Shown piece after piece: positions 11,573 through 45,316 of a DNA stretch of 64,000 nucleotides. The stretch's first letter is position 1. Every line of letters begins with the position of its first letter. The notes under the pieces were generated by a model. It worked only from the letters and a program-made list of their open reading frames with translations. It was not told the DNA's origin and did not search any database. This DNA comes from an uncultured Oscillospiraceae bacterium (GTDB taxonomy: Bacteria > Bacillota > Clostridia > Oscillospirales > Oscillospiraceae): positions 7,570 to 71,569 of the forward strand of contig CAKTQR010000003.1 of the NCBI GenBank assembly GCA_934597175.1, given 5' to 3'. Position numbers and translations under genes: made by a program.

Positions 11573-11600
11573 GCTGAAGCGTTGAAATGAAACTGAAATG

Positions 11601-11629: not shown

Positions 11630-11665
11630 ATGTGAACTTTATTATTAGGAGTGTGTTAGTCCGAA

Positions 11666-18654: not shown

Positions 18655-18731
<77 letters not shown>

Positions 18732-18962: not shown

Positions 18963-19004
18963 AAAAAAGACCATTTTTGAGCACCTCGGTGCTCAAAAAT
19001 GGTC
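18963..19004 (-). terminator. GntR gene terminator overlapping its last codons
   Basis: GACCATTTTTGAGCAC-ctcg-GTGCTCAAAAATGGTC. The stem contains the codons for DHF and the stop, with TTTTTT after it on the minus strand. Confidence 0.7.
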
Positions 19005-19703: not shown

Positions 19704-19853
19704 AGAACATCCTCCTGGGACAAGTTGACGGGTGTCGAACTCAAAGGGTCAACGGATATTATGATATCGGTTTTTCGGGCAATAGTCAAGGGCTGTGCGG
19801 CATAATGCACGAGGGGTATTAATCGTTGTAATAATTTCTTTCGGGTTTATCTA

Positions 19854-20773: not shown

Positions 20774-20775
20774 TC

Positions 20776-21033
20776 TTACAGCTCTCCTAGGCAAATTAAA
20801 AACTCCACTAAATCTCTGACTGCTCCGGGCTTCATGACATCATCGGGATGAGGCTTATGCAGTAAAATGACCTTCTGGTCTTTTTCTCTGTAAAACTTAA
20901 CCCTTGAACCCGATGTCTTTCCTTTTTGAAATTCTTCAAATCCCAATTGGGACAGCAATTTCTTTGCTTCTGTATAGGTATAATCCTTAGGCTTTGATTT
21001 TATTCTATCCTTAGCTTTTTCAGATTTGCTCAT
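20776..21033 (-). CDS. hicA: HicA-family mRNA interferase toxin
   Basis: 85 aa. AKKLLSQLGFEEFQKGKTSGSRVKFYREKDQKVILLHKPHP matches the HicA dsRBD-like pattern, including the catalytic His region. Confidence 0.85.
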   Translation of the reverse strand: MSKSEKAKDRIKSKPKDYTYTEAKKLLSQLGFEEFQKGKTSGSRVKFYREKDQKVILLHKPHPDDVMKPGAVRDLVEFLICLGEL

Positions 21034-21205
21034 TAACCCGGCCCACCTCCCGCATATTGCAACTATTATACAGTTGCAGAATAACACACTTCTTATAATC
21101 TGTCAAGTCGGCTGCCGGTATATACCTTTTCCCCTTTGCAAGCAACCGTCCTTTATGCTATACTTGCAACAGATGGTCAAATTTAATCTATTAGGTGAGG
21201 ATAGT

Positions 21206-28667: not shown

Positions 28668-29444
28668 ATGACGCAGGACGAAAGACGGCGCTATCTCATC
28701 GGAGCGCTCCTCAATGAGCGCTCCGAGCGCATCGAGATGCCGGCCGAGGCGGGCGACCAGCGGCTTTTGCTGCGGGCGCTTATGAATGTGCGTCCGGCGC
28801 AGCGCACGGCGGCGGAGTTTCTCAGGGTGCAGGACGAGTATCTGCACGATGAGCTCGCCGACAAGGGCGTCACCGACATTGACGAGCTCAGCCCCGTGCA
28901 GCCCGGACTGTACCTTTGGCAGGGCGACATTACGACGCTTCGCTGCGACGCCATCGTCAACGCCGCAAACTCCGGGCTCACCGGCTGCTACATCCCCAAC
29001 CACCGCTGCATCGACAACGCCATCCACACCTACGCCGGCGTGCAGCTGCGCCTCGCCTGCGCCGAGCTCATGCGCCGGCAAGGTCACCCCGAGCCGACGG
29101 GGCAGGCGAAGATAACGCCTGCGTTCGACCTGCCGTGCCGCTATGTGCTGCATACGGTCGGACCGATCATCGAGGGACGGGTCACGAAGCGGGACGAAGC
29201 GCTTTTGTGCTCGTGCTACCGCTCGTGCCTCGAGCTGGCGGCGGAAAACGATTTGGAGAGCGTGGCGTTCTGCTGCATCTCGACCGGCGAGTTTCACTTC
29301 CCGAACGAGCGTGCCGCCGAGCTTGCCGTGCGCACGGTCAAGGAATTTTTGACGCAGGAAAGCAGCGTCAGGAGGGTGGTTTTCAATGTTTTCAAGGATA
29401 CCGACAGGCGCATCTACGAGCGGCTTCTCCGAGAAGATCGCTAA
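28668..29444 (+). CDS. macrodomain protein (ADP-ribose hydrolase, SirTM-associated type)
   Basis: GDITTLRCDAIVNAANSGLTGC...IDNAIHTYAGVQL...VLHTVGPI...CISTGEFHFP are macrodomain motifs. 258 aa. Confidence 0.85.
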   Translation: MTQDERRRYLIGALLNERSERIEMPAEAGDQRLLLRALMNVRPAQRTAAEFLRVQDEYLHDELADKGVTDIDELSPVQPGLYLWQGDITTLRCDAIVNAANSGLTGCYIPNHRCIDNAIHTYAGVQLRLACAELMRRQGHPEPTGQAKITPAFDLPCRYVLHTVGPIIEGRVTKRDEALLCSCYRSCLELAAENDLESVAFCCISTGEFHFPNERAAELAVRTVKEFLTQESSVRRVVFNVFKDTDRRIYERLLREDR

Positions 29445-30264
29445 GCTGCGGGATGCGCTTTGCGACTGCGACGCCGTTGTCATCGGCGCAGGCGCAGGTC
29501 TGTCCACGGCGGCGGGCTTTGTCTACGACGGCGAGCGCTTCGACTCGCTTTTCCCGGATTTCAAGGTCAAATACGGCTTTAAGGACATGTACACGGCGGG
29601 CTTTTACCCCTTCCCCACGCCCGAGGAGCACTGGGCGTATTGGAGCAGGTTTGTCTACGCAAACCGCTATCAGGATGCGCCCGAGCCGCTGTACGAGCAG
29701 CTGCTCTCGCTCGTGCGGGACAAGGACTATTTCGTCATCACGACCAATGTCGACCACTGCTTTCAAAAGGCGGGCTTCGACAAGCAAAGGCTATTTTACA
29801 CGCAGGGCGACTACGGCCTGTTCCAGTGCAAGCGCCCCTGCCGGCAGGAGACCTTCGACAACGAAGCGGTCATCCGGCAGATGGTCGAGCGGCAGGCGAA
29901 CATGCGTGTTCCGACCGAGCTTGTGCCCCGCTGCCCGCACTGCGGCAGGCCCATGACGATGAATCTGCGCTGCGACGACACCTTTGTCGAGGACGAGGGC
30001 TGGCACGCCGCCAAGGCTCGGTACGAGCAGTTTTTAAAGGAGCACAAGCGGCAGAAAATTCTGTTTTTGGAGCTCGGCGTGGGCTACAACACCCCGGTCA
30101 TCATAAAATATCCGTTCTGGCAAATGACCGCCAAAAACCCGCACGCCGTCTACGCCTGCCTCAACCTCGGCGACGCCTACGCCCCGCCCGACATCGCCCG
30201 CCGCAGCATCTGCATCGATGCAGATATTGCGCAAGTGATACACGAACTTAAAAAAGCTGTCTGA
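29386..30264 (+). CDS. Sir2-family protein, class M (SirTM)-like
   Basis: Rossmann start AVVIGAGAGLSTAAGF, zinc ribbon CKRPC...CPHCG, and LELGVGYNTP. The ORF overlaps the macro gene by 59 nt if the first ATG is used. Confidence 0.75.
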   Translation: MFSRIPTGASTSGFSEKIAKLRDALCDCDAVVIGAGAGLSTAAGFVYDGERFDSLFPDFKVKYGFKDMYTAGFYPFPTPEEHWAYWSRFVYANRYQDAPEPLYEQLLSLVRDKDYFVITTNVDHCFQKAGFDKQRLFYTQGDYGLFQCKRPCRQETFDNEAVIRQMVERQANMRVPTELVPRCPHCGRPMTMNLRCDDTFVEDEGWHAAKARYEQFLKEHKRQKILFLELGVGYNTPVIIKYPFWQMTAKNPHAVYACLNLGDAYAPPDIARRSICIDADIAQVIHELKKAV

Positions 30265-30357: not shown

Positions 30358-31653
30358 TTATGCTTCGGGAGCGGGGTCAGCTACGATAGTGAAGGTGAAG
30401 GTGTAGGGGAATGCGAAGAAGTCGCCGCCGCTGACGGAAGCGGTAACGATGTACTTACCGGGAGCGGTGGGCATGGTGCTCTTTGCATAGATCTTGCCGA
30501 CACCGGTGAACCAGTAGCGGATAGAGCCGGCGGAAGCGCTGTTGAGTGGAGTGCCGTTCTCGGTGAGGATGCAGAGGTTGTTGCCTTCCTTGAGTGCCTC
30601 AGCCTGGGAAACGGTGATGGTGTTAGCCTTTGCGTTGCTGCTCAGTACGGGATTCTTGGCGAGCTTAATGCCCTTCCAGTTCTTAAGAACGATGAGAGAG
30701 CCGGTTGCATCGGCGGTCTCGTAGTTCTTGCCGACTGCGACTGCGGTCAGCGTGTAGACGCCTGCGTGAGCCGGAGTGCCGATAGCGAGCACGGTGTCGT
30801 CAGAGATGGAAGCGACTCTGTCGAGAGCTTCAATAATAGCCTTGATAGCGTCAGTGTTATAACCAAAGATTTCAAGACCGCCCATTATGAAATCATTCGT
30901 TACTAAGTCGTTGATGATTTCTCTGAATTCGCCAACGGTAGTTCCCTGCTGAAGCTTCTGCTTCAGAGTAAGTCTGTCGGTATATCCCTTGTGGTCGTAC
31001 CACTTCTGCTGATACTCGCTGATTTTATCGATCAGTTTTTCCTGATCTGCGTTCAGCTTGAGATATACGCAGGTCTCCTTGTTGGTGTTGACGCCGACAA
31101 AGAACATGTAGACATCGATCTCGGGATCGTTCGGGTTGAGGGTGTAGACCGTGCTGCGGTCGATCTCTTTACCGGCATAAATCTTGTTGATGGGGTTGAC
31201 GCTGACATTGACAGTGCCCTTGACTATGGTGATCTCGACAGTTTCCTTGCTTGACTTGTAAGTGTCGTTTCCGTTGTAGGTTACACGGATCTTCGGCGTA
31301 TCGCCTGCGTCATCTTTGGGTCTGCCGTTGCTATCAGCAAAATCGTTCGGAATTATGCCGAACATTCTCTCCACGGTGAAGTCAGCGGCAGTTACATCGG
31401 CGGGAAGCGTAGATGCGTCCATATCGACGACATTTGCGATGATGTCCTTTATCATCTCGTCAGCGTTCATGTTATAAGCAATGCTGACGCCCTCTTTGAG
31501 GACTACCTTGGACTTTTCCTTTGAAGCCTGTACGGCTATGCTCTGGGTAGCTGCGTCGTCTGCGAAAACGGCGGGGGAAATGCCGACGACCGAGAATATC
31601 ATCACGACAGCAAGCAGCGAAGCCATAAAGCGCTTGAGATTGCTAAGTTTCAT
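30358..31653 (-). CDS. secreted protein, unknown function
   Basis: 431 aa from the ATG at 31653 (GGAGG upstream). Signal peptide MKLSNLKRFMASLLAVVMIFSVVGISPAVFA. Beta-rich. Confidence 0.65.
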   Translation of the reverse strand: MKLSNLKRFMASLLAVVMIFSVVGISPAVFADDAATQSIAVQASKEKSKVVLKEGVSIAYNMNADEMIKDIIANVVDMDASTLPADVTAADFTVERMFGIIPNDFADSNGRPKDDAGDTPKIRVTYNGNDTYKSSKETVEITIVKGTVNVSVNPINKIYAGKEIDRSTVYTLNPNDPEIDVYMFFVGVNTNKETCVYLKLNADQEKLIDKISEYQQKWYDHKGYTDRLTLKQKLQQGTTVGEFREIINDLVTNDFIMGGLEIFGYNTDAIKAIIEALDRVASISDDTVLAIGTPAHAGVYTLTAVAVGKNYETADATGSLIVLKNWKGIKLAKNPVLSSNAKANTITVSQAEALKEGNNLCILTENGTPLNSASAGSIRYWFTGVGKIYAKSTMPTAPGKYIVTASVSGGDFFAFPYTFTFTIVADPAPEA

Positions 31654-31800
31654 GCTATGCCTCCATATAAAGAAATTATTAATTCGTTTGACCGAACTAT
31701 ACAAATCTAGTTAACATTGTTCGGTCAGCTGACAATATAATAACAAACTACTTGCAAAATTGCAATAAAAATTTTGGCATTTTTAACATGAAGTTTTGAC

Positions 31801-31830
31801 AAAAAACGCAATGTGATGCTTCACATTGCG
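31801..31830 (-). terminator. orphaned intrinsic terminator (original guaA terminator)
   Basis: CGCAATGTGA-agca-TCACATTGCG plus TTTTTT on the minus strand. It lies 14 nt downstream of the left copy of the guaA 3'-end repeat, with no gene feeding it. Confidence 0.75.
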
Positions 31831-31844
31831 TTTTGGTGTATGTT

Positions 31845-31860
31845 TTATTCCCACTCGACG
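31845..31860. repeat. attL core (direct repeat)
   Basis: TTATTCCCACTCGACG, identical to 45301-45316. Confidence 0.85.
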
Positions 31861-32108
31861 AGGACTAAACAATTCTGTTTATGCAATTTTGCTTTTCGTT
31901 AGTCTCTCTATTTTGATTTTACGATGTATCTGTATTATCCTTTGCTAAAATGCCCTTGTTATCATTTTGTTATCGTGGTTGATAACAAGAATAATTTCAC
32001 CGTGGATAATATGGAAGTGGTATGTGTGTATTATAGCGTACTTGACCTCAAATTGCAATATGTTTTTCAAAATTTACACGCAATATTTACAAAAAGCGTG
32101 CAAACCTC

Positions 32109-32137
32109 TTGCGATTTAGGGAACAATCTATTATAAT
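32109..32137 (+). promoter_or_regulatory. sigma-A promoter of the cargo operon
   Basis: TTGCGA, 17 nt, then TATAAT. Confidence 0.6.
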
Positions 32138-32163
32138 ATAAACACGCATAATGAGAATGCTGC

Positions 32164-32793
32164 GTGCAGAAAGTTGGTGGCAGTTTGAGTAAGCGCGATA
32201 TCGTAAACGAAGTATTTAATACAGTCGGTGAAGTTGCAAAGAAATCTGATTTCATTTCTGCCGGACTGAAAGAACAAGATGTTTATACGCTTTTTAAGCA
32301 GGGATATATTGAACGTGTCAAGCACGGTTATTATAAGCTGTCTGTTGGGGATGAACTCAAAGAAGAAGTTCTCCTTTCCAAATTGATGACACAAGGCATC
32401 ATTTGTGTTGACTCGGCGCTGTTTTATTACGGTTACAGCGATTTTGCGCCCCGTGAATGGACGATTGCCGTTCCCCGTTCCTATTCCAGAACCGTAAAAG
32501 CCATACAGGAAGAAGTGCCGGTAAAGGCGTATTATGTTCAGAACGATATGTACCACCTCGGTGAAACAACAGGTACTTTTAACGGTGTCACGCTTCCCGT
32601 ATATGACCGTGAACGCACTATCTGTGACTGTTTCAAATACCGCACGAAACTGGATAATGAGATATTTAATAAAGCAATCAACGCCTACGTAGCAGATGAA
32701 AAGAAAAACCTTGCCACTCTTTCCAAATATGCAAAGGAAATGGGCGTGTATAAAAAAATGATGAATGTAATGGAGGTACTGCTTAATGGCTGA
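32164..32793 (+). CDS. abiEi: AbiEi-family antitoxin (type IV TA / abortive infection)
   Basis: N-terminal wHTH (DVYTLFKQGYIERVKHGYYKL). C-terminal block LPVYDRERTICDCFKYRTKLDNEIFNKAINAYV...KNLATLSKYAKEMGV is typical of AbiEi_4. The start may be the TTG at 32185. Confidence 0.85.
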   Translation: MQKVGGSLSKRDIVNEVFNTVGEVAKKSDFISAGLKEQDVYTLFKQGYIERVKHGYYKLSVGDELKEEVLLSKLMTQGIICVDSALFYYGYSDFAPREWTIAVPRSYSRTVKAIQEEVPVKAYYVQNDMYHLGETTGTFNGVTLPVYDRERTICDCFKYRTKLDNEIFNKAINAYVADEKKNLATLSKYAKEMGVYKKMMNVMEVLLNG

Positions 32794-33682
32794 TATTGCT
32801 GCATCTGTGCTTGCACGACTGAAAAATAAGGCTGCCGAAAGCGGAAGAAGTTATCAGCTTTGTCTGCAACTCTTTTGCCAAGAGGAATTTCTGCGCCGTT
32901 TGGAAAAATCCAAATATGCAGAAAATCTTGTGCTGAAAGGCGGCTTGTTTATCTATTCCCTTACCGACTTTGACAGCCGAGTAACAGTTGATGTTGACTT
33001 CTTGCTCCGCCAAATGCCAAATACGCCAGAGCAGTTGAAAACCGTGTTGGAGGAAATTATAGCAACACCTACCGGAAACGACTTTATCTCTTTTGAGATT
33101 AAAGATGTTGCTCCTATTGCTGTTGCCAAAAAGTATGCAGGAATCGGTGCATCGGTGGTCGCTCGCATTAAAAATACCAAAACACCGTTCAGCATTGATT
33201 TCGGTGTGGGGGATGTCATCGTACCGAAACAGGAAAAACGAAAAATCCCGACACAGCTTTCCGACTTTGACGCCCCAACGGTAAATACATATTCCCTTGA
33301 AACAACCATTGCCGAGAAAATAGACGCTATTCTCAGTCTAATGGAATTTTCCAGCAGAATGAAAGATTACTACGATATTTACTATCTTGCCAATAAATTT
33401 GATTTTGACGGAGCTACGCTGACGGAAGCACTGAAAAAGACCTTTGAAAACCGTGGGCATAGCTTTACTGTTGAACAGTTTGAGCAGGTAATGGGCTTTG
33501 ACAGCGACGGCGCAATGCAGAAAAAGTGGAAAGCCTTTGTTCGCAAAATTGATACAAAAACGGATGATTACGGCACCGTGCTGAAAACAATAAAGACGTT
33601 TTTAACAAAACCGTTTGTGGCAGCGGTAGAAGGCAATGCGTTCACAGGTAATTGGACTGCTCCGAACAGTGAGTGGATGTAA
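32786..33682 (+). CDS. abiEii: AbiEii/AbiGii nucleotidyltransferase toxin
   Basis: SVLARLKNKAAESGRSYQLCLQLFCQEEFLRRLEKSKYAENLVLKGGLFIY...VDVDFLL is the family signature. 8-nt overlap with abiEi. Confidence 0.85.
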   Translation: MADIAASVLARLKNKAAESGRSYQLCLQLFCQEEFLRRLEKSKYAENLVLKGGLFIYSLTDFDSRVTVDVDFLLRQMPNTPEQLKTVLEEIIATPTGNDFISFEIKDVAPIAVAKKYAGIGASVVARIKNTKTPFSIDFGVGDVIVPKQEKRKIPTQLSDFDAPTVNTYSLETTIAEKIDAILSLMEFSSRMKDYYDIYYLANKFDFDGATLTEALKKTFENRGHSFTVEQFEQVMGFDSDGAMQKKWKAFVRKIDTKTDDYGTVLKTIKTFLTKPFVAAVEGNAFTGNWTAPNSEWM

Positions 33683-33694
33683 TAGGAGGAAGTT

Positions 33695-36124
33695 ATGAGT
33701 ATAAACAATAATCCATATGATTTTTTGAATACTCCTGCACTTGACGCTATGCGAAAATTGCAGGAAACCGGTGCCTTGACTGCTGCACTTAAAATGGAAA
33801 CAACAGGTGCGTTTGCTGCAGTAAGAGAACTACAAAGTACGCTCAATGCCGTAAAATCATCTATGGGCGGTGCCACTGCGGCACTCGAAGAATATAGAAG
33901 GACCGTTGCTCCAATCTCAGAGTCTATTAAGGCGATGAATCTTGCCTATGCTCCGATTTTTGAGCAGACAAAAGCCTTTGACACCTTGAATATCAAAGGT
34001 ATTATATCGGGATTACAGACAAGTGCATCCGCTATGAGTGCTATATCGGGATTAAATCTTTCAGGGATTGCGAGTATTATTGACGCTCTCCCCAAATACG
34101 ACTTTTTATCAGATATGGTTACGGATGATTTTTCTGTAGATGCTGCCGAAAAGTTATATGAAAGCGGCGAAATCACGCAGGACGATATCAATGAGGAAAT
34201 CACAGAGATTGTCAACAAAAAGCAGTTTTCGCCTAAAGCTGAATGGGACAAGATTAAAAAGAGCAAGTGGTTTATAGCTATTAAAATTTTGATAATTATA
34301 ACTACATTTGTGTGTAACCCTGTTACGGAATATGCTACCGGTAAGGCGCTTGACAAGTTGGGCATTTACGAGTTTTGGGAGGATTCCGGCGTATACGATT
34401 TAATAGATTCAATCTTTGGAGAAAGCGAAGATAGCACAGTGTCTGAGACAGAAGCCAAGGAAACTGTTGATAAAACTAAAACGGGTAACGTATCAAAACA
34501 GAGGCGAGAAGGTTTACTTGCTAAAATTAAAGATATTCGCACCTTTATATCATCTGCACCGCAGGACGAGAATACAGCCAATCTACTCTCATATCTTTCC
34601 GATTTGGAAAAAGATGTGAACGGCAAGAAATATGGACTGGTTTTTGAGGAACATCGTGAGGAAATTGACGAGGTACTTGCCACCCACACACCCGTTCTGA
34701 CCGAACAGAGCGACCTTTATATCGACAACGGCGGTGAAATGAACTTTCTCATTGAGGGCGACAACCTTGCTTCGTTGCAGTTACTTGAAAAAACACACAA
34801 GGGCAAAATTGACCTTATCTACATAGATCCGCCATATAACACAATGAGCACCGGTTTTACATATTCAGATGCTTTGGTTGATAACGGGGATAATTACCGA
34901 CATTCAAAATGGACTTCCTTTATGAAGCATCGTTTGGAACTTGCCCGAACTCTGCTATCTCCTACAGGATGTATTTTCATCTCTATTGACGATAATGAGT
35001 TTGCCGCTCTTAAATTAATCTGCGATGAAGTATTTGGTTGGCAAAACTTTGTTACAACTTGTATGTGGCAAAAAATTCATAGCATAAAAAATGATGCTAA
35101 ATACATATCCGTAAATCATGATTTTATCTTTGTATATGCCAAAAATATTGATCTGCTTAAATTTAATCTTCTTGACAGAACGGACGAAATGAACAGCCGC
35201 TATAAAAATCCCGATAACGATCCAAGAGGACCTTGGCAATCAGGAGATTTAGTTGCAAACGAAGTACGTACAAATGGTAATTATGATGTAATAGGACCAA
35301 CAGGCAAAATTTTCAATGTTCCTGAGGGTAAACATTGGGTGTACTCCGAAGATAATATGCGTACTTTAATTGCAGAAAACAGAATTTGGTTTGGTAAGAA
35401 CGGAACTTCTTTTCCTCGCAAGAAACGTTATTTGTCAGAAGTTCAACAAGGTCGTACACCTGACTCTTGGTGGACGAGTGCTGAAGTCGGGCATAACCAA
35501 GAAGGTGCACGTGAACTAAAATCTATTTTCGACGGCAAAGTGGTGTTTACTAATCCAAAACCCACACGTCTTATTGAACGAATTATTAAGATGGGTTCAA
35601 AAGATAACAGTATAATTCTCGATTTCTTTGCTGGTAGCGGGACACTTGGTCACGCTGTACTAAAATACAATGCAAGTAACGAACATAGTAACCGTCGCTT
35701 TATTCTCTGCACCAACAACGAAAACAATATTTGCCGTGATGTTACATATGAACGCATAAAGCGAGTAATTGATAAAGAAAATTACGAGGCAAGTCTTAAA
35801 TATTACAAGGTAGACTATGTTCCTATAAATGAGCGCATGTATTACGAATATGCGGACGATCTCTTAAAGCATATCCGTGAACTCGTTGAGCTTGAAAACG
35901 GCGTGAACTTTACGGGAAATGATGAAATCGGTATTGTGCTGACCGAAGAAGAACTTGACGAATTCATCGCAAATACCGATGCTTTTACAAAGTGCCGCAA
36001 ACTGTATATGGGACACGACCTTTTGCCAAGTGTTGAGCAGGAACAGATTTTAAGCACTCGTGGCATTGAAATCAGCATTATTCCCGATTATTACTATAGG
36101 GATTTACAGGAGGGAAAAGAATGA
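33695..36124 (+). CDS. mod: type III Mod-like DNA methyltransferase with ~300-aa non-MTase N-terminal extension
   Basis: 809 aa. Beta-class motif order: IV LIYIDPPYNT, then I LDFFAGSGTLGHA. The N-terminus is Ala/Ser/Gly-rich and helical, with a hydrophobic stretch WFIAIKILIIITTFVCNPV. Confidence 0.8.
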   Translation: MSINNNPYDFLNTPALDAMRKLQETGALTAALKMETTGAFAAVRELQSTLNAVKSSMGGATAALEEYRRTVAPISESIKAMNLAYAPIFEQTKAFDTLNIKGIISGLQTSASAMSAISGLNLSGIASIIDALPKYDFLSDMVTDDFSVDAAEKLYESGEITQDDINEEITEIVNKKQFSPKAEWDKIKKSKWFIAIKILIIITTFVCNPVTEYATGKALDKLGIYEFWEDSGVYDLIDSIFGESEDSTVSETEAKETVDKTKTGNVSKQRREGLLAKIKDIRTFISSAPQDENTANLLSYLSDLEKDVNGKKYGLVFEEHREEIDEVLATHTPVLTEQSDLYIDNGGEMNFLIEGDNLASLQLLEKTHKGKIDLIYIDPPYNTMSTGFTYSDALVDNGDNYRHSKWTSFMKHRLELARTLLSPTGCIFISIDDNEFAALKLICDEVFGWQNFVTTCMWQKIHSIKNDAKYISVNHDFIFVYAKNIDLLKFNLLDRTDEMNSRYKNPDNDPRGPWQSGDLVANEVRTNGNYDVIGPTGKIFNVPEGKHWVYSEDNMRTLIAENRIWFGKNGTSFPRKKRYLSEVQQGRTPDSWWTSAEVGHNQEGARELKSIFDGKVVFTNPKPTRLIERIIKMGSKDNSIILDFFAGSGTLGHAVLKYNASNEHSNRRFILCTNNENNICRDVTYERIKRVIDKENYEASLKYYKVDYVPINERMYYEYADDLLKHIRELVELENGVNFTGNDEIGIVLTEEELDEFIANTDAFTKCRKLYMGHDLLPSVEQEQILSTRGIEISIIPDYYYRDLQEGKE

Positions 36125-36558
36125 ATGACTTTTTACAGACACTACTTATAGCATGTATTCCTGCCGTTGTTACGGGAATAGTATCCTATTTGGTTGCACA
36201 TAAAAACGCGTCTTCTCAAGTTAAAATAGTTCAAGAACAAAATGAACACGATATCAAAAAGTTAATGGAACAACACAAAGTTGATATTGATTCATTAAAA
36301 GAAAAATATCGTCTTGAAGCAGAAGAAAAAGATAGAGAACATGTTCGCAAATTGGAGTTAATGCAAAAGGAATATGAATTAAAACTCAAGCAACAAGAAA
36401 GCGAAGCTGAGAATACCGCTAAATACGGAGCAGTGAAAGATATTTTCAGCGGACTTATGGGTGGCATGGTTTCTTCTGCTATAAATACTCCTGAAGTGCA
36501 ACAGCAAATGTCAAAAGCATTTACAGATGCTTTCAAGGCAAAGGATGGTGAGAAATAA
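36121..36558 (+). CDS. N-terminal TM + coiled-coil protein
   Basis: 145 aa. ATGA overlap with mod. TM segment LLIACIPAVVTGIVSYLVA is followed by a Lys/Glu-rich heptad-like region. Confidence 0.65.
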   Translation: MNDFLQTLLIACIPAVVTGIVSYLVAHKNASSQVKIVQEQNEHDIKKLMEQHKVDIDSLKEKYRLEAEEKDREHVRKLELMQKEYELKLKQQESEAENTAKYGAVKDIFSGLMGGMVSSAINTPEVQQQMSKAFTDAFKAKDGEK

Positions 36559-36560
36559 GT

Positions 36561-38747
36561 ATGGAGCTAAAAGAATTTCAGCTTGCAGCAGTAAAATCGC
36601 TGTTTGAGGCTATGGACAAGCCTGCCCGTGATATTATCCTCAAAAGCCCTACGGGTAGTGGTAAAACCATTATTCTGACCTATTTTATGCACCAATACAT
36701 ACAATCTTTTCCGAAGACTGTCTTTGTGTGGCTCACGCCGGGTAAGGGCAACCTTGAGGAACAGAGCAAGGCGAAAATGGATAAGTATATCCACGCTTCA
36801 CAGACCAAACTGCTCTCCGATGTTATGACATCAGGTTTTGAGGAAAACGACAGTTGCTTTATAAATTGGGAGAAGCTCACCAAGAAAGGTAATAACGCCC
36901 TTAAAGACAGCGAACGAACCAATTTTATAGAGCATATTCAGCACGCCCTCAATGACGGTATTCGTTTTATTATTATCGTTGACGAGAGCCACCAAAACAA
37001 CACAATAAAAGCTGATGAAATCATACAGTATTTTCACACGGACAAGATTATCCGCTGTTCTGCTACCCCGAAAGGCATAGCAAAGGCGGAAATCATCGAA
37101 ATACCCGAAGAAGATGTAATTGCGGCGGGACTTATCAAGAAAATGCTTGTTATCAACCAAGATTTTCCGCAAACGATAGAAACGGACGATCAAACGGCGT
37201 TTCTTCTTGAAAAGGCACTCCTAAAGCAGAGAGAACTCCGTGCAGCATTTTTACAAAACGATACTGATATTAACCCGCTTATCGTGATTCAGATTCCGAA
37301 TAAATCAGAAACCTTACAGGACGGCGTGGAACGCTACCTTGAAACACAAGGATTGACTTACGAAAACGGACAACTTGCGGTATGGCTCTCCGACCAACAC
37401 GAAAACTTGGAGGGGATTGACAAACCTAATGCCGTATCTTCTGCCGTTATCATAAAGCAAGCGGTTGCTACAGGTTGGGATTGTCCGAGAGCACATATTC
37501 TCGTAAAGCTCCGTGATAATATGGACGAAACCTTTGAAATACAAACCATAGGACGTATTCGCCGTATGCCCGAAGCAAAGCATTATCAAAGTGATCTGCT
37601 TGATAGTTGCTATCTTTACACTCTCGACGAAAAATTTACCGCAGGTGTAAAACTGGCTCTCGATAAGGGTGCGTTAAATGCTTGTACTCTTTTCCTCAAA
37701 AACGAGCATAAAGATGTAATGCTCATTAGTGAGCAGAGAACAATGATTACAAGTACCCGTAATCCGCAAAAGGCACTACAAGCTGTTGTATCCTATGCTC
37801 AAAAAGAACTCGGAGTTGGTACGGACAAGACGGAAAATCGCACCCGTTTGCAAACCGCAGGATATGAACTGAGTGAAAATATCGTGAAGCATACCCTGTC
37901 AGGCGAAACTGCTACTCTTGATTTTGCGGCAGCAGATATGAACACTATTGCAGTTACAGAAAAACTAAACACCCATAAGCACGGACGAGATTACCACCAC
38001 GAAATCGGTAAAATCGGCATGGAAATTGGTATGGAATACTCCTATATGAATACCATTATCCGTAAACTATTTGATAAGAATTTCAAGTATAGTCGCAAGA
38101 TCCTTGCTTTAGAGCCGAGAGAAGTTTACGCATTTGTACTAAACAATGCCGACCGACTACGCCATTTGGTTCGTGAAGCTATGGCTTATGAGTTAGCACA
38201 ATTGCAGTTGGAAATTAAGCAGAAATCTTATTATGAGTTCCGCATTCCGCAGTCTTGTTTGTTTACCTATAACGGTGATGCAAAAACACAGCTCATTATG
38301 AAAAAGAACGTGTATCAGAATTATCTTTCCTCTGCTGCACCACGCTCTGTGCCGGAGGTTAAATTTGAAAAATTCTGTGAGCGTTCCGACAGTGTTGAAT
38401 GGTGGTATAAGAACGGGGACAAGGGCAACGAGTATTTTTCTATCGTCTATGTGGACAATTCCAATAGACAAAAACTGTTCTACCCCGACTATATTATTTC
38501 CGTAAACGGTGAGTTGTGGATTATCGAAACCAAAGGCGGATTTGACCGTAGCGGTAATAGTCAAGATATTGACCTTTATACACCGAAGAAATTTGGTGTG
38601 TTGAAAGCATATCTTGATGAGCACGGCTTAAAGGGTGGTATCGTGCGTAACGATGCAACTACCGATGAACTGTGTATCTGTATGTATCACTATTCCGATG
38701 ATATAGGCAGTAATGATTGGCAAGTGCTTGAAAGCGTATTGCCGTGA
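36561..38747 (+). CDS. res: type III Res-like SF2 helicase / PD-(D/E)xK nuclease
   Basis: 728 aa. Motif I KSPTGSGKT, motif II VDESHQN, and a C-terminal nuclease-like YPDYIIS...LWIIETKGG. Confidence 0.8.
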   Translation: MELKEFQLAAVKSLFEAMDKPARDIILKSPTGSGKTIILTYFMHQYIQSFPKTVFVWLTPGKGNLEEQSKAKMDKYIHASQTKLLSDVMTSGFEENDSCFINWEKLTKKGNNALKDSERTNFIEHIQHALNDGIRFIIIVDESHQNNTIKADEIIQYFHTDKIIRCSATPKGIAKAEIIEIPEEDVIAAGLIKKMLVINQDFPQTIETDDQTAFLLEKALLKQRELRAAFLQNDTDINPLIVIQIPNKSETLQDGVERYLETQGLTYENGQLAVWLSDQHENLEGIDKPNAVSSAVIIKQAVATGWDCPRAHILVKLRDNMDETFEIQTIGRIRRMPEAKHYQSDLLDSCYLYTLDEKFTAGVKLALDKGALNACTLFLKNEHKDVMLISEQRTMITSTRNPQKALQAVVSYAQKELGVGTDKTENRTRLQTAGYELSENIVKHTLSGETATLDFAAADMNTIAVTEKLNTHKHGRDYHHEIGKIGMEIGMEYSYMNTIIRKLFDKNFKYSRKILALEPREVYAFVLNNADRLRHLVREAMAYELAQLQLEIKQKSYYEFRIPQSCLFTYNGDAKTQLIMKKNVYQNYLSSAAPRSVPEVKFEKFCERSDSVEWWYKNGDKGNEYFSIVYVDNSNRQKLFYPDYIISVNGELWIIETKGGFDRSGNSQDIDLYTPKKFGVLKAYLDEHGLKGGIVRNDATTDELCICMYHYSDDIGSNDWQVLESVLP

Positions 38748-38762
38748 TGGGGGTGTTGGAAT

Positions 38763-39359
38763 ATGACTATTGATTCATTTGAAGTAGTATTCTACACCTG
38801 CATATTCCTTCTTCCTGGTTTTATTATCAAAAGCATTATGGATACATTGGTTCCGCCTATTAAACATAACGATACAAAGTATTTTTTCTCTTGTTTGTTG
38901 TATAGCATTGTTAATTGTGCAGTTTGGAGTTGGGCGTATCTATTGCTCAATAAAATTTCTGAAGAACATCCCACAATTTATTGGATTTCGCTGCTTGCAA
39001 TAACTGTAGTAGGAGCAACTCTACTTGCTATTTTTATCGGGGTTGTAAAGCAAAAGGGATTCATCGAGTGGTTATTTGCAAAAATGAGGGTCAACAAGAT
39101 TCATCCCGTTCCAACTGCATGGGATTATTACTTTTCAAAACAAGAAGAAGCGTGGATCATTGTAACTTTGAAGAATGGTAAAACCATATATGGAAAATTC
39201 TCCGAGCATTCTTTTGCATCTTCTGACGCTGAAGAACGAGATCTTTATATTGAAAAAACTTACAATATTAAAGAAGATATGACTTGGGTAGAAGATGACA
39301 AAAGCAATGGAATACTTGTTGCAAAAGATGAAGTTGAAACTATAGAATTTCTAATTTAA
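38763..39359 (+). CDS. membrane protein with soluble C-terminal domain (DUF6338-like)
   Basis: 198 aa. Three hydrophobic segments, then PVPTAWDYYFSK...WIIVTLKNGKTIYGKF. The family name is from memory. Confidence 0.6.
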   Translation: MTIDSFEVVFYTCIFLLPGFIIKSIMDTLVPPIKHNDTKYFFSCLLYSIVNCAVWSWAYLLLNKISEEHPTIYWISLLAITVVGATLLAIFIGVVKQKGFIEWLFAKMRVNKIHPVPTAWDYYFSKQEEAWIIVTLKNGKTIYGKFSEHSFASSDAEERDLYIEKTYNIKEDMTWVEDDKSNGILVAKDEVETIEFLI

Positions 39360-39372
39360 AGGAAGTGAAAAA

Positions 39373-39549
39373 ATGAGCGACACAAAGAAGCCTAATCCTA
39401 ATACAAATTTTGGCTATCAGCCTAACAGTGAGCAACGTGGATATCAACCCAAGAAAGGAATAAATGAAGGGTATCAACCTACAAAGTCTATATCTACTCA
39501 ACCACCTAATAAAGGCTCAAATGTTCAGCCGGCAAAAAATGATAAGTAA
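39373..39549 (+). CDS. 58-aa GYQP-repeat peptide (absent from the ORF track)
   Basis: My translation: MSDTKKPNPNTNFGYQPNSEQRGYQPKKGINEGYQPTKSISTQPPNKGSNVQPAKNDK. AAGGAAG RBS lies 7 nt upstream. It is the last gene before the hairpin. Confidence 0.5.
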   Translation: MSDTKKPNPNTNFGYQPNSEQRGYQPKKGINEGYQPTKSISTQPPNKGSNVQPAKNDK

Positions 39550-39555
39550 AAAAAC

Positions 39556-39587
39556 GGGGTAGCATAGTACAATCACTGTGCTACCCC
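39556..39587. terminator. hairpin between convergent operons
   Basis: GGGGTAGCA-loop-TGCTACCCC. An A-run precedes it on the plus side, which reads as a T-run for the minus-strand tnpV. Confidence 0.65.
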
Positions 39588-39594: not shown

Positions 39595-39975
39595 TTATAA
39601 CGTAATAATCAAATCATTATTCACAATTTCTGTTGCTCTGCTACGAATATCATTCATTCGACCAACCCACGCCATTTGATTGTCCGCTTTGAGTTGTTCG
39701 GTCACGCCCTCGTATTCTGCCATCTGTTTCACCAGCCTAGAAAACATTTCTTCCGCCTGTCGGTTAATATCAGCAAGGTAACTGTTTAACTTGCCGCTTG
39801 TCAGCAGATTGGTGTATAGTACCCTTCGATTTTGCTTGATGTGTCGCAAATGTCGTTGCCCCCATATGCCGATTGGCTGTTGTTCTTCAGCGGGTAACGC
39901 AAGGTCGGGTAGATAATAATCTCCTTGCAAGGTGTAGTTGATTCCCGTTTTTTCGTCCGTAAAATGCTGTTTCAT
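39595..39975 (-). CDS. tnpV: TnpV-like transposon-associated protein
   Basis: YTLQGDYYLPDLALP...IGIWGQRHLRHIKQNRRVLYTNLLTSGKLNSYLADI...QLKADNQMAWVGRMNDIRSRATEIV matches the TnpV pattern of clostridial mobilizable elements. Confidence 0.75.
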   Translation of the reverse strand: MKQHFTDEKTGINYTLQGDYYLPDLALPAEEQQPIGIWGQRHLRHIKQNRRVLYTNLLTSGKLNSYLADINRQAEEMFSRLVKQMAEYEGVTEQLKADNQMAWVGRMNDIRSRATEIVNNDLIITL

Positions 39976-39984: not shown

Positions 39985-41163
39985 CTACCTTTCATCTTTA
40001 TAATTTCTAAAGCGTTTTTCACGCTGTTTAGACTGCTTTTCCGACTTTGCTCTATCAAGCAAGTCATCAATTTGTTTATGACCAAATACTTTGCGGAGAA
40101 GTTTGTAATTCCTGTTTTCCGCACGCAGATTTTCATTCTCTCGTGATAATTTTTCATTAACTTTCGATAACTTCTCGTTTTCACGATATAGGTTTCCGTT
40201 TGTGATGTTCAATCTGTGGTAACTGTCCAACGCCTTGAAATATCGTGCAAATAAGGTGCTTATTAAAGACTTAAATCGGGATATAAGCGGCTCAACAAAC
40301 TTTGCCTTATAAGTTCTCGCCGACATCATTGCAGGCGGTTCAGGCAACTGATATTCAGGCTCATTCATTATGCTTTCATCAAGATTTTGTAACGATCTTT
40401 CGCCGTTATCAAAGTTTTCAATGCGGTCAGCCATAACACGAAATTCATCTTTCTTTTCAGCTAGTTTATCTTCAAGAGCGTTAATTTCTTTTTCTCGCTC
40501 CTGCTTTTTGTAATCCAAAACAGACAGGTGTTTTTCGTGAGTACCCTTGTGTTCCCATTCAATTCCGTGGCGTTCCATAACAAATGCGAGTGCGGATTTT
40601 TCTACGCTTACCCATTGGTTCCACTCGGTATCTCCACGCGTTCCGCCCTTAAAACCTTGGGCAGCAAGAGCCTGTTTCAGAGATACTCTTGTATCAAGTC
40701 CACGCTTGCTACCCGTGATGAACGGAACAAAATCAATGTGCAAATGTGGCGTTGCTTCATCCATATGCAGATGAGCCGAGAACACTTTTAACTGAGGATT
40801 TCTTTCCTGAAACCCACGATAGTATTCATCTAAAATTTGTCGGGCAATCTCTCCGTTTTCACTTTCCGCACTCATATTTTCTTTATCGCCTATCTGCAAA
40901 ATGAGTTCGTGGAACGGCTTTTCTTGCTTTGAATTACGGATTTTTTCATAGTAGTTTTCTATTCTGCGGTCGGCTCTTGTCTGTTTATCGTTGTACTTTT
41001 CAAGTGCTTCGTCAAACAATTCGTGATAGACTTTCTTGATATTTTCATTACAGTAGTCGATATTGAGATGTGTTCGACTGCCGTCAACATTTTCCGCTTT
41101 GAACTTGCGGCTGTTGTGATTAACCGAGCCTTTACCGACCATTGCGCTTATCGTTCTTTTCAT
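39985..41163 (-). CDS. mob: MobV-family relaxase (Mob_Pre / plasmid recombination enzyme)
   Basis: Conserved HLHMDEATPHLHIDFVP histidine motif and N-terminal GKGSVNHNSRKF. 392 aa with a coiled-coil C-terminus. Confidence 0.85.
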   Translation of the reverse strand: MKRTISAMVGKGSVNHNSRKFKAENVDGSRTHLNIDYCNENIKKVYHELFDEALEKYNDKQTRADRRIENYYEKIRNSKQEKPFHELILQIGDKENMSAESENGEIARQILDEYYRGFQERNPQLKVFSAHLHMDEATPHLHIDFVPFITGSKRGLDTRVSLKQALAAQGFKGGTRGDTEWNQWVSVEKSALAFVMERHGIEWEHKGTHEKHLSVLDYKKQEREKEINALEDKLAEKKDEFRVMADRIENFDNGERSLQNLDESIMNEPEYQLPEPPAMMSARTYKAKFVEPLISRFKSLISTLFARYFKALDSYHRLNITNGNLYRENEKLSKVNEKLSRENENLRAENRNYKLLRKVFGHKQIDDLLDRAKSEKQSKQREKRFRNYKDER

Positions 41164-41510: not shown

Positions 41511-42485
41511 TTACTGATCGCTGCTCTCTTTTTCTTCGGGTAGTTGCCAATACCACATACTGCCTTCCTTAACAGATCGCACACGCAGAGTTTTCTTTGC
41601 TTCATCGAGCACTCGTTTGGAGATATCTAAACTCTGCGCCTTTTGCAGCAAGGTCTGTTGCGGGTACTTCCCGCCGGATAGGTAGTCAACGATAAGGCTT
41701 TCAGCCATATCGGATTTCTTCTCACGACTGATGCCGCTGAGAAGATCGTCGATGGAAATATCATAATGACCGAGCCATTTGAAGCCGTTGGCTTCACTCA
41801 GTTCAAATGCGATAGGTTTGCCTTCCGGTGCGAGGGAAGATTTTTGATGTGCCGCCACTCGTATCTCCGGTTTGTCCTTTACTCTGCCAACTACAAGGAC
41901 GCTTCTTGCTGTTGCTTGAAAGTCTATGGAACCAAGACCTCTATAATTGGATTTGTTACCCTGTGCCTTGTTTAAGTGTCCCACAAGTATAATCGCACAA
42001 CGGTATTTCTCAGCGATCCTGCCAAGCTGAGAGAGAATGGTACGGACTTCATTTGCTCGGTTCATATCTACCTTTGCGCCGATATAGGCTTGCATTGGAT
42101 CTAAAATCATTACCCTTGCACCTGTTTCTGCAATAGCTTTTTCTACTCTCTCGTCAAGCATCGTCAATGCTGCCTCAGATTCGTCGATCACCTTGATTTG
42201 TGAGCAGTCTGCATTACCGGCAAGAAGACGAGGCTTGATGGTATCCCCAAGCCCATCCTCTGCGGTTTGATATATTACCTTAATCGGCTCGCGCTCGGTG
42301 TCGTCGCAGGGTAGTTTTTCTCCCCTTGACAACAGAGCCGCTAATCTCAATATCAGTGTTGTTTTTCCTTCACCGCCGTCGCCGTGAATGATTGTCAACT
42401 TACCGTATGGGATATAGGGATACCACAGCCATTCCACTTCTTCGACGGGCACCTCATCCATACTGATGATTTTTAATTCCGCCAT
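41511..42485 (-). CDS. RepA-like AAA/RecA-fold ATPase (AAA_25 type) with C-terminal wHTH
   Basis: Walker A HGDGGEGKTTL, Walker B VMILDP. 324 aa. Confidence 0.7.
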   Translation of the reverse strand: MAELKIISMDEVPVEEVEWLWYPYIPYGKLTIIHGDGGEGKTTLILRLAALLSRGEKLPCDDTEREPIKVIYQTAEDGLGDTIKPRLLAGNADCSQIKVIDESEAALTMLDERVEKAIAETGARVMILDPMQAYIGAKVDMNRANEVRTILSQLGRIAEKYRCAIILVGHLNKAQGNKSNYRGLGSIDFQATARSVLVVGRVKDKPEIRVAAHQKSSLAPEGKPIAFELSEANGFKWLGHYDISIDDLLSGISREKKSDMAESLIVDYLSGGKYPQQTLLQKAQSLDISKRVLDEAKKTLRVRSVKEGSMWYWQLPEEKESSDQ

Positions 42486-42621: not shown

Positions 42622-42954
42622 TTATATGCCATCCTTTTGCTCCTTCATTCCATATAGCGTGGTGTTAATCTGCTCAATACGGTCGAGCAAGTCATCGTGA
42701 ACTCCTGCGCCGGCTTCGATGCGTTTAAGTTCATCGAGGACGGCGGTAAGCTCGTTTCGCAGGGCCTTATAGACTCTCGGATTGCCGACAACCGTTATTT
42801 GCTGCTTCAGAGCACGGGCACAAAGATAATCCTGCTTTGTCAGTCCCGATATTCTGACATTACTGTCCAAAATAGCAGCCTCCTGCGGCGACATACGAAA
42901 AGCAATTGTTTTGCTCCTCCAACGGTTGTGACGGTCAAGATTTTTAGCGGACAT
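42622..42954 (-). CDS. MobC-like relaxosome accessory protein
   Basis: 110 aa from the ATG at 42954. KTIAFRMSPQEAAILDSNVRISGLTKQDYLCARAL is an RHH-like MobC pattern. 11-nt overlap with int. Confidence 0.6.
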   Translation of the reverse strand: MSAKNLDRHNRWRSKTIAFRMSPQEAAILDSNVRISGLTKQDYLCARALKQQITVVGNPRVYKALRNELTAVLDELKRIEAGAGVHDDLLDRIEQINTTLYGMKEQKDGI

Positions 42955-44032
42955 TTTCAATATCCATCCTTTCATATTCAAGTTTCTTTGCCATTTCCGT
43001 CTGCTTTGACGGGAATAGGTGTGCATAGCGATATGTGATCTCAATGCTTTCGTGACCGACACGGTCGGCAATTGCCACCGCAGAAAAGCCCATATCTATG
43101 AGCAGGGAAATATGGCTATGGCGCAAGTCGTGAATGCGGATACGCTTCACCCCTGCGGCTCTTGAGCCACGATCCATTTCTCGGTGCAGATAATTCTTTG
43201 AAATGGGGAATATACGGTCTTTCTTTTTGTAGCCGTACAGCATACCGATATAATCCTGCATTTCCTCACAGAGAAACTGCGGCATTTTAATTGTGCGGTT
43301 GCTTTTCCTTGTTTTCGGTGTGGTAATGACATCTTCGCCGTGCAAACGCTGATAAGATTTGCTGATTGTAACAGTACCTTTTTTAAAGTCGAAGTCCCCC
43401 GCAGTCAGAGCGAGTAACTCGCCCTCACGAATGCCACACCAGTAAAGCATTTCAAATGCGTAGTATGATACGGGCTTGTCCATCATTTCATCGGCAAACT
43501 TCTTGTACTCTTCTTTCGTCCAAAACTTCATTTCCTTGCGTTCCTCTGTGCCCATATTCCCGGCTTTTGCGGCGGGATTGGAACGAAGGTCATAATGTCT
43601 TACAGCGTGGTTAAAGATGGCACTAAGCTGATTGTGGACGGTTTTGAGATAGGTCTGTGAATACGGCTTCTTCTTTTCATCACGAAAAGCGAGCAGTTCA
43701 TTCTGCCAAGCGATTACATCCTTTGTGGTGATCTCACTGACATTTTTCTTTTCAAAATAGGGTAAAATCTTGGTTTCAATGATATGCTTTTTGGTCAGCC
43801 AAGTGTTTTCTTTTAAGCGGGGTTTTATGTCCTTTATATAAAGCTCAACAAAGGCGGAAAAGTTCATATCCATATCGGCAGCACTTTGCTGCTTAAATAC
43901 TCGCTCCCACTCCTGCGCCTCTCGTTTGGTTTCAAAGCCTCGCTTGCATTTCTGTTTGCGCTCGCCTTTCCAATCTACATATCGTGTTAAAACATACCAA
44001 GTGCCGTTATCTTCATTTTTATAAACAGGCAT
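42944..44032 (-). CDS. int: tyrosine integrase (Tn916-type, AP2-like N-terminal arm-binding domain)
   Basis: N-terminus YKNEDNGTWYVLTRYVDWKGERKQKCKRGFETKREAQEWE. Catalytic R...HDLRHSH...Y (ITYRYAHL). Overlaps xis by 14 nt. Confidence 0.9.
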   Translation of the reverse strand: MPVYKNEDNGTWYVLTRYVDWKGERKQKCKRGFETKREAQEWERVFKQQSAADMDMNFSAFVELYIKDIKPRLKENTWLTKKHIIETKILPYFEKKNVSEITTKDVIAWQNELLAFRDEKKKPYSQTYLKTVHNQLSAIFNHAVRHYDLRSNPAAKAGNMGTEERKEMKFWTKEEYKKFADEMMDKPVSYYAFEMLYWCGIREGELLALTAGDFDFKKGTVTISKSYQRLHGEDVITTPKTRKSNRTIKMPQFLCEEMQDYIGMLYGYKKKDRIFPISKNYLHREMDRGSRAAGVKRIRIHDLRHSHISLLIDMGFSAVAIADRVGHESIEITYRYAHLFPSKQTEMAKKLEYERMDIENVR

Positions 44033-44219
44033 TTTTGTTCTCCTTTCTGGCTTGGTACAGCCTTTCATTAAAATACTCTCTGTTGACTCTTCCCGAGATG
44101 GTAATAAAGCCTTTACGCTTTAGTTCCTCATTCAGCTCTCGTATGACTTTGTAGGCATACGAGGTTGAAACATCGAGAATCTCAGCGACTTCTTCCACTC
44201 GCATAAACTGTTGTCCCAT
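44019..44219 (-). CDS. xis: excisionase-type HTH protein
   Basis: 66 aa. MRVEEVAEILDVSTSYAYKVIRELNEELKRKGFITISGRV is HTH_17/Xis-like. GGAGG lies 7 nt upstream. Confidence 0.8.
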   Translation of the reverse strand: MGQQFMRVEEVAEILDVSTSYAYKVIRELNEELKRKGFITISGRVNREYFNERLYQARKENKNACL

Positions 44220-45300: not shown

Positions 45301-45316
45301 TTATTCCCACTCGACG
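45301..45316. repeat. attR core (direct repeat) = last codons of guaA
   Basis: TTATTCCCACTCGACG. The reverse complement encodes ..VEWE and the stop. Confidence 0.85.

Follow-up and report, generated by a model that had tools for sequence, protein, structure and literature searches.

The 64,000-nucleotide stretch analyzed here (the window), from an uncultured Oscillospiraceae bacterium (contig CAKTQR010000003.1), carries seven plus-strand genes at positions 32164-39549. They encode an AbiE toxin-antitoxin (TA) pair, a type III-like restriction-modification (R-M) pair, Mod and Res, and three small proteins, namely, a 145-amino-acid transmembrane (TM) protein encoded between mod and res (TM145) and, behind res, a DUF6338 membrane protein and a 58-amino-acid peptide. 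Comparison with related loci indicates, with a probability that we put at roughly 0.7, that this array is a co-oriented defense island of at least four independently mobile modules at the cargo end of an integrative mobilizable element (IME) and not one machine. Defense islands on IMEs and genes embedded in R-M operons are already known; the new leads are an embedding slot in a type III-like system and a module made of DUF6338 and the peptide.

Relatives were gathered by a search with Res, keeping one genome per species, which yielded at least 193, chiefly from gut Clostridia, with others in Gardnerella, Paenibacillus, Treponema, and one planctomycete metagenome-assembled genome (MAG). Eighty loci of 56 to 95% identity were fetched (loci are referred to below by L numbers) and searched with all seven proteins by tblastn, and both the mod-res junction and the region downstream of res were surveyed in the 67 relatives with enough sequence. 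The only parts conserved nearly throughout were Res and residues ~265 to 807 of Mod. Everything else came in mix-and-match combinations: ModN, the N-terminal segment of the window's Mod, at about 13 loci, TM145 at 12, DUF6338 with the peptide at 7, and AbiE adjoining Mod/Res at about 6 of the 67. A rabbit-gut MAG (L010) has the complete set of seven in unchanged order, and a near-equivalent order was found in L092 and L094.

At the mod-res junction, 45 of the 67 relatives have a gap of 41 nucleotides or less with no gene in it, and a gene of the TM145 family, coding for 94 to 147 amino acids, occupies the site in 12. Five carry an insert of about 1.2 kb, which is a gene for an FRG-domain protein of 375 to 396 amino acids assigned to the PADLOC candidate system PDC-S15. 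Four others have an insert of about 520 nucleotides, in which an unrelated gene for a protein of about 170 amino acids is intact in three cases and degraded in L058, and one has a gap of about 108 nucleotides. The FRG/PDC-S15 gene was seen at the junctions of L003 (6806-7957), L006, L029, L041, L054, and L039, and the ~170-amino-acid protein, which matched no family, at those of L026 (7243-7752), L051, and L057.

Before mod, we found AbiE (6 loci), Fic/SoFic-PDC-S04, GmrSD, DUF6680, and two other families of TM proteins. After res, 23 of the 67 loci have a HamB-like helicase gene, 7 have DUF6338 and the peptide, always as a pair, 17 have other genes, and 20 have nothing on the same strand. The HamB-like gene is preceded by a gene for either a protein of 229 to 234 amino acids without a HamA match or, in L015 and L021, a 311-amino-acid protein that matches HamA. 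Hachiman thus holds in these relatives the position that DUF6338 and the peptide hold in the window; it is, however, absent from the window, DUF6338 shows no homology to it, and the ~230-amino-acid partner of HamB mostly lacks a HamA match. The Hachiman-like loci include L011, L017, L022, L024, L029, L031, L033, L037, L038, L040, and L042 (10189-13205), the two with a 311-amino-acid HamA spanning 10204-13192, and may represent a diverged subtype of Hachiman that regularly accompanies this Mod/Res lineage.

A preliminary description of this DNA, made from the sequence alone, had taken the small membrane and peptide genes for parts of the R-M machine, pointing to the 4-nucleotide overlap of mod with the TM145 gene. 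The same slots elsewhere hold FRG/PDC-S15, Hachiman-like, AbiE, SoFic-like Fic, or GmrSD genes. Conservation of the small genes beside mod and res homologues, which that description had named as a check, turned out to be poor, as the counts given above show, and every accessory gene can also be found at loci that lack this Mod/Res pair. Poor conservation, shared slots, and independent occurrence together leave the machine inference unsupported, although the more general idea of layered defense, with R-M and abortive infection (Abi) systems side by side, fits the data. Operon-like packing on a mobile element is by itself no sign of one machine; comparative context resolves it into exchangeable cassettes.

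TM145 (36121-36558) consists of a single TM helix, a coiled coil, and a Gly-rich tail. Its only family match was phrog_2542 (2e-12), a family of uncharacterized phage proteins; it matched nothing in Pfam, PADLOC, or NCBIfam, the last of which was uninformative for the array proteins. When TM145 alone was searched against metagenome contigs, 80 loci were returned, of which 77 could be evaluated, many of them redundant copies of one element, and in 67 of these 77 the TM145 relative lies exactly between the C terminus of Mod and the N terminus of Res. Exceptions include L101 and L172 to L175. In L174 (3992-4435), the TM145 gene follows type I hsdM-hsdS and precedes a gene for an unknown 287-amino-acid protein and tnpV, and in L101 (6001-6435), a 59%-identical TM145 sits in an island of radical-SAM, T5orf172 helicase, and SIR2_2-DUF4020 genes with no R-M neighbor. 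Compared with the window, L010 has a TM145 of 95% and a Res of 87% identity with a Mod of just 51%, and L009 has a Res of 88% and a TM145 of 44%; these unequal identities indicate that the cassettes are exchanged independently.

The DUF6338 protein (38763-39359, 198 amino acids) matched PF19865 (1.5e-30) and is followed by the gene for the 58-amino-acid peptide (39373-39549), which contains three GYQP repeats spaced by 9 to 10 residues and a PPxKGS tail. Neither protein matched a PADLOC v2.0.0 model, and the peptide belongs to no Pfam or PADLOC family. In every DUF6338 context that we examined, the next open reading frame (ORF) encodes a peptide of about 50 to 77 amino acids with two or three [GT][YF]QP motifs at the same 9- to 10-residue spacing and a PPxxGS-like tail, and the pairing holds across 30 to 98% DUF6338 identity. 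This recurrence argues that the peptide, a conserved partner of DUF6338, is encoded by a real gene, one that the source gene callers missed at several loci. In the near-equivalent arrays of L092 and L094, the peptide has 49 amino acids and has lost one repeat, GYQP and GHQP being kept.

Away from Mod/Res, where the DUF6338 homologues are 30 to 65% identical, the pair was found beside an HATPase/Z1/DUF4420/Mrr cluster (L081, 6001-6793), on a satellite-like element (L085, 6001-6979), beside TIR, caspase, and NLR-like genes (L088, 6001-6794), and between two integrases (L104, 6001-6787). In L108 (6001-6790), it is nested in a type I R-M operon of the order HsdM-YhcG-HsdS-SieB-DUF6338-peptide-AIPR-HsdR. 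Further copies lie in L111 (3166-4012) and L115 (1980-~2800), the window copy spanning 38763-39549. We conclude from these contexts that DUF6338 and the YQP-repeat peptide form a conserved, autonomous, uncharacterized two-gene module. The literature yielded one passing mention of DUF6338, in a proteomics paper, and nothing on its pairing with the peptide; "GYQP" appeared in papers on the SARS-CoV-2 spike only. A mainly phage-borne origin, for instance, as a superinfection exclusion system, was considered and is unsupported, since a scan of IMG/VR found no TM145 and only 4 viral contigs with DUF6338.

The AlphaFold2 (AF2) model of DUF6338 (mean predicted local distance difference test score [pLDDT], 88.7) has three TM helices and a short helix ahead of a beta domain at the C terminus. 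All of the top 50 Foldseek matches in the PDB were Sm/LSm proteins, with a probability of ~1, target TM-scores of up to 0.74, and E values of just ~1e-2, and on this model we assign the C-terminal domain, with high confidence, a predicted Sm fold. Because a Lys/Arg-rich segment follows the third TM helix, this domain is probably cytoplasmic. Foldseek against BFVD returned one uncharacterized Siphoviridae protein (E = 2e-4) and was uninformative. Three predicted TM helices joined to a beta domain recall the layout of MscS-type channels; unlike these and unlike Sm proteins, however, DUF6338 has a YQP-peptide partner without counterpart, it shares no sequence homology with either, and MscS was not among the top 50 Foldseek matches. 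Sm domains assemble into six- or seven-membered rings. We accordingly propose that DUF6338 may form a membrane oligomer held by a cytoplasmic Sm-like ring, and the three-repeat peptide would bind it as a regulator or antitoxin, giving a membrane-acting abortive or exclusion module.

The R-M pair itself was assigned as follows. Mod (33695-36124, 809 amino acids) consists of the N-terminal ModN segment of ~262 amino acids (33695-34480) and a predicted N6-adenine methyltransferase (MTase) core of type III (34481-36124), which matched PADLOC MTase_III over residues 265 to 803 (1.4e-116) and PF01555 (1e-36). The start of the MTase_III match at residue 265 bears out the non-MTase N terminus noted earlier, at a length of ~260 amino acids. 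In the PDB, Mod matched EcoP15I Mod (4zcf_A, 1.6e-39) and 6k0w_B (1.9e-54); its motifs follow the order DPPY and then FxGxG, and its middle target recognition domain (TRD) diverges among relatives, with both ends conserved. Res (36561-38747, 728 amino acids) is a superfamily 2 (SF2) helicase that matched PF04851 (ResIII, 1.2e-18) and, over residues 134 to 372 only, PADLOC REase_III (1.4e-18). An alignment with 12 relatives showed, at the level of motifs, that GSGKT, DESH, and QTIGRIRR are invariant, as are P642, D643, E656, T657, and K658, in keeping with the PD-(D/E)xK C terminus proposed before. No significant match of Res to PDB sequences, EcoP15I Res included, was obtained with either phmmer or a 12-sequence profile. 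We therefore call the pair "type III-like," since Mod clearly matches EcoP15I Mod but Res has no sequence relative in the PDB. As in EcoP15I and EcoP1I, mod precedes res on one strand, Mod has the homology, motif order, and variable central TRD of the type, and Res combines an N-terminal SF2 (ResIII) helicase with a C-terminal PD...ExK. Unlike in those systems, Res is short and its REase_III match partial (~1e-18), Mod is fused to a foreign N-terminal module of ~260 amino acids, and a foreign gene lies between mod and res.

The ModN fusion was detected by tblastn in about 12 to 13 relatives (34 to 84% identity). Since most ModN homologues are free-standing proteins of 268 to 290 amino acids, the 809-amino-acid Mod is a gene fusion. 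In L112 to L114 (7001-7873), the gene for a free-standing ModN of 290 amino acids, 74% identical to that of the window, runs into the beginning of a gene for an EcoRI-like methylase, which is followed by genes for a GmrSD-HNH protein and an OLD-like ATPase and by tnpV. The assembly collection index lists exactly this ModN protein in 439 blocks. ModN is all-helical with one conserved hydrophobic segment (residues ~190 to 210) and has no family in Pfam, PHROGs, or PADLOC; the PADLOC matches of full-length Mod were to MTase models alone, none of which extended into ModN, and the free-standing L112 homologue had no PADLOC match; its AF2 model, built with 30 homologues, was of low confidence (pLDDT, 38). 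Upstream of mod, relatives carry membrane proteins of the DUF6680 family (~170 amino acids, one TM segment) and of two families of 258 and 271 amino acids with two TM segments each, at loci that include L002, L004, L006, L011, L015, L021, L026, L033, L041, L043, L045, and L078; L092 and L094 have a separate DUF6680 gene instead of a fused ModN. We rejected the idea that ModN is a fused version of these upstream genes, as BLASTP found no similarity to DUF6680 or to the 271-amino-acid protein. Tethering of Mod to the membrane through ModN was rejected as well, since, if the hydrophobic segment were a simple TM helix, the Lys-rich stretch before and the acidic stretch after it would place the MTase outside the cell.

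The first two genes of the array encode AbiEi, a predicted antitoxin and transcriptional regulator (32164-32793, 209 amino acids, GTG start), which matched PADLOC AbiEi over residues 9 to 208 (4.8e-60) and Pfam AbiEi_4 below the cutoff (0.0017), and AbiEii, a predicted nucleotidyltransferase toxin of the DUF1814 family (32786-33682, 298 amino acids), which matched PF08843 (3.5e-47) and, over nearly its full length, PADLOC AbiEii (1.6e-93). AbiE systems are autoregulated, and for this reason two 24-nucleotide elements with palindromic ends, CACGC-N14-GCGTG (32077-32100 and 32143-32166), which bracket the -35 and -10 boxes of abiEi, may be its operators. An AbiEii of the toxin family, an AbiEi gene immediately upstream with an 8-nucleotide overlap, and near-full-length matches for both proteins all correspond to AbiE type IV TA/Abi systems, and the palindrome-ended repeats flanking the promoter may do so as well; different here is that five more genes start 12 nucleotides downstream, and these would fall under AbiEi control if the array has no internal promoter. 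The near-equivalent array of L092 and L094 (3225-3845, 9193-9342) has an AbiEii truncated to 206 amino acids. A megablast search with the operon found nothing among PLSDB plasmids and, among INPHARED phages, a sole match at 79% identity to the AbiE part only (MT836674.1, 7245-8799), in a 9.2-kb human fecal sequence deposited without annotation as "Bacteriophage sp."

When the ORF coordinates were rechecked, the seven same-strand ORFs and all six junctions (-8, +12, -4 [ATGA], +2, +15, and +13 nucleotides) were exactly as first described, a recognizable Shine-Dalgarno sequence precedes six of the seven starts, and Pfam and PADLOC scans agreed with the domain calls of the preliminary description. 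Its account of transcription stood only in part. The promoter region (32077-32166, plus strand) does contain the sequence TTGCGA-17-TATAAT (32109-32137), a 10-of-12 match, but promoter-like matches in the region are not significantly more numerous than in shuffled sequences (32 versus 24.3 ± 5.1) and a stronger match (11 of 12) lies within mod at 33978, so that a single sigma-A-type promoter for all seven genes is not established. Similarly, the hairpin after the last ORF is present and strong (39556-39587, 14 bp, GC rich, -26.1 kcal/mol, z = -7.9). It lies, however, between the convergent peptide gene and tnpV, with an A7 tract ahead and no U tract behind it on the plus strand; because the U tract (U7) is on the minus strand, it is primarily the canonical terminator of tnpV and at best bidirectional. 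Terminator-like matches within the array were weak and no more numerous than chance would give (10 versus 8.9 ± 3.1). A single transcript for all seven genes is plausible from the sequence, since the gaps between the genes leave no room for promoters. Close spacing is a general property of such cargo arrays.

On the basis of these data, we propose a defense island built on a conserved R-M pair that offers exchangeable cassettes three slots, one ahead of mod, one at the mod-res junction, and one behind res. The first module would be the AbiEi/AbiEii type IV TA or abortive infection pair, probably under its own autoregulated promoter. In the second, as can be expected from the protein families, Mod would methylate adenine in a short asymmetric site and, together with the helicase-nuclease Res, would cut unmethylated incoming DNA in an ATP-dependent manner, and cleavage would, as in type III enzymes generally, call for inversely oriented sites, with hemimethylation by Mod; in this copy, Mod is fused to ModN, a segment that elsewhere is free-standing ahead of unrelated methylases. 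TM145 would be the third module, placed in a mod-res slot that is empty in most relatives and filled by other genes in some, and DUF6338 with the YQP-repeat peptide would be a self-contained fourth in the post-res position. The R-M enzyme would probably work without the small genes, and these are most likely extra, separately acting defense or exclusion functions that hitchhike in the R-M operon. What the analysis shows is the anatomy of the array, the homologies, the modular distribution, and the predicted fold of DUF6338; cotranscription, the biochemical activities, and any part of the small genes in defense are inferred.

Several points weigh against the modular reading. Cotranscription of all seven genes would also suit a functional unit. 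A membrane-type protein directly upstream of Mod, or a fused ModN on it, was found at 27 of 48 loci, and such proteins, although they belong to several unrelated families, are more frequent at the Mod N terminus than we would expect by chance. TM145 is embedded almost exclusively at the mod-res junction, which resembles PrrC and hints at functional coupling; both observations leave room for a looser functional link. ModN, TM145, and DUF6338 figure in no model of PADLOC v2.0.0 (2023), the version used for all defense models. The surveyed loci are not phylogenetically independent, and both the simple longest-ORF rule by which the ORFs of related loci were called and the hydropathy threshold by which TM segments were assigned are crude. 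Tight same-strand packing, one good promoter match, one strong hairpin, and the recurrence of membrane-type proteins around this Mod/Res lineage could be taken to favor the model of the preliminary description, in which the Mod/Res pair, TM145, and DUF6338 with its peptide, AbiE being included or not, are subunits of a single restriction machine that is tethered to the membrane or senses infection. The same can be said of the gene order shared with L010 and, nearly, with L092 and L094, but this recurrence is explained by the spread of one tnpV-carrying element family. We hold a single machine to be highly improbable, given that most Mod/Res relatives lack the accessory genes and the others combine them freely, that each of them occurs in unrelated contexts without this pair, and that autonomous systems, namely, Hachiman-like, PDC-S15, SoFic-like, and AbiE, take the same slots.

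A narrower form of coupling, in which TM145 is separately mobile yet works with the R-M enzyme, deserves more credit, though we still consider it unlikely. TM145 would then be a latent membrane suicide or exclusion effector, silenced by intact Mod/Res and freed by a phage anti-restriction protein, or else a modulator of R-M activity or localization. The precedent is PrrC, in the EcoprrI type I R-M operon, which is likewise an unrelated gene nested in an R-M operon, translationally coupled, and placed in a slot that varies between genomes. TM145 too is nested in R-M operons and found almost only there (67 of 77, redundant loci), it takes the mod-res position in all contexts of P0156 and P0163, it is translationally coupled on both sides by the ATGA overlap and the 2-nucleotide gap, and its other context, beside type I hsdM-hsdS, also adjoins DNA methylase genes. 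Unlike PrrC, however, TM145 has neither an ABC-ATPase sensor nor an anticodon-nuclease domain, nor indeed any enzymatic domain; most Mod/Res relatives have no junction gene at all, TM145 identity does not track that of Res or Mod, unrelated FRG/PDC-S15 and ~170-amino-acid genes use the same slot, and the L101 homologue does without an R-M neighbor. Finally, ModN, TM145, and DUF6338 with the peptide might not serve defense, acting instead in entry exclusion by the element against related elements, in its addiction or stabilization, or in methylase regulation, or being neutral passengers. Their confinement to mobile-element cargo beside tnpV, integrases, or satellites and the lack of any matching defense model agree with this, and the placement of ModN-type genes directly ahead of methylases of two unrelated families suits methylase-linked regulation. 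We nonetheless judge a nondefense role improbable, because these genes lie repeatedly within or next to bona fide defense genes, including a type I R-M operon with SieB and AIPR, because embedded genes mostly belong to neither the mobilome nor housekeeping functions (Payne et al., bioRxiv 10.1101/2024.01.29.577857), and because, against neutrality, the peptide motif is conserved across 30 to 98% identity of its partner.

The survey of Payne et al., which dealt with Hma, BREX, DISARM, and type I R-M and did not cover type III R-M, showed that the genes nested in these systems are often defense systems themselves and used this pattern for predicting new ones; DUF6338 is absent from its supplementary tables (bioRxiv 10.1101/2024.01.29.577857). 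We found no paper that deals with genes nested at a type III mod-res junction. The present loci resemble such "guilt by embedding" in that one slot holds varied known or candidate defense genes and in that DUF6338 with the peptide is also nested in a type I operon, and the idea of R-M operons hosting nested defense genes thereby reaches a lineage of type III-like systems common among gut Bacillota. Uncharacterized and abundant defense candidates that emerge are TM145, the ModN family, DUF6680 and the other upstream TM proteins, and the ~170-amino-acid junction protein; the foremost lead is DUF6338 with its conserved YQP-repeat micro-protein. We advance, tentatively and with more doubt than conviction, a joint proposal: that DUF6338 and the [GT][YF]QP peptide are a new two-gene defense or TA module, in which the peptide gates or neutralizes an Sm-ring membrane oligomer, and that the mod-res junction is an embedding slot whose commonest occupant, TM145, serves in the membrane as a fail-safe of the PrrC kind, its action being tied to the state of the restriction enzyme. 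If true, either possibility would mean a new mechanism of bacterial immunity and an extension of guilt by embedding to type III R-M.

The array is the cargo end of an IME of ~13.5 kb in the 3' end of guaA (45301-46830, minus strand). The element is bounded by a 16-nucleotide exact direct repeat, TTATTCCCACTCGACG, of which the attL-side copy (31845-31860) duplicates the guaA 3' end and the attR-side copy (45301-45316) overlaps the guaA stop codon. At the attL-side repeat, the GC content falls from ~0.55 to ~0.40, and it amounts to 0.39 to 0.45 within the element against ~0.55 in the flanks. Behind the array, all on the minus strand, follow genes for TnpV (39595-39975; PF14198, 4.2e-49), a Mob_Pre (MobV-type) relaxase (39985-41163; PF01076, 4.3e-23), an AAA_25/RepA-like ATPase (41511-42485; PF13481, 9.9e-29), a NikA-like mobilization accessory protein (42622-43071; PF21983, 1.4e-13), and a tyrosine integrase with Arm and SAM-like domains (42944-44068; PF00589, 1.6e-20); a gene for a helix-turn-helix protein also lies inside the repeats, and no conjugation-pore genes were found between them. 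A tyrosine integrase, a Mob_Pre relaxase without a type IV secretion system, and direct repeats at a conserved target identify the element as an IME, and the integrase, the relaxase, the NikA-like gene, and the repeats uphold the location on a mobilizable element given in the preliminary description.

In many otherwise different elements, both tyrosine-integrase IMEs and serine-recombinase elements, tnpV adjoins the far end of the defense cargo (L092 to L100, L112 to L114, and L174), which suggests a common cargo-insertion region beside tnpV. Outside attL, the window has a Sir2-like gene (29386-30264, plus strand; weak Pfam SIR2 match, 5e-4), a gene for a 448-amino-acid protein with an N-terminal signal- or TM-like segment and no Pfam family (30358-31704, minus strand), and a strong hairpin (31803-31834) immediately ahead of the att repeat. 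Another low-GC patch, at 19000-22000 (0.41 to 0.46 versus ~0.55 in its flanks), adjoins the only tRNA gene of the window, a tRNA-Met gene (18655-18731), and may be a further integrated element.

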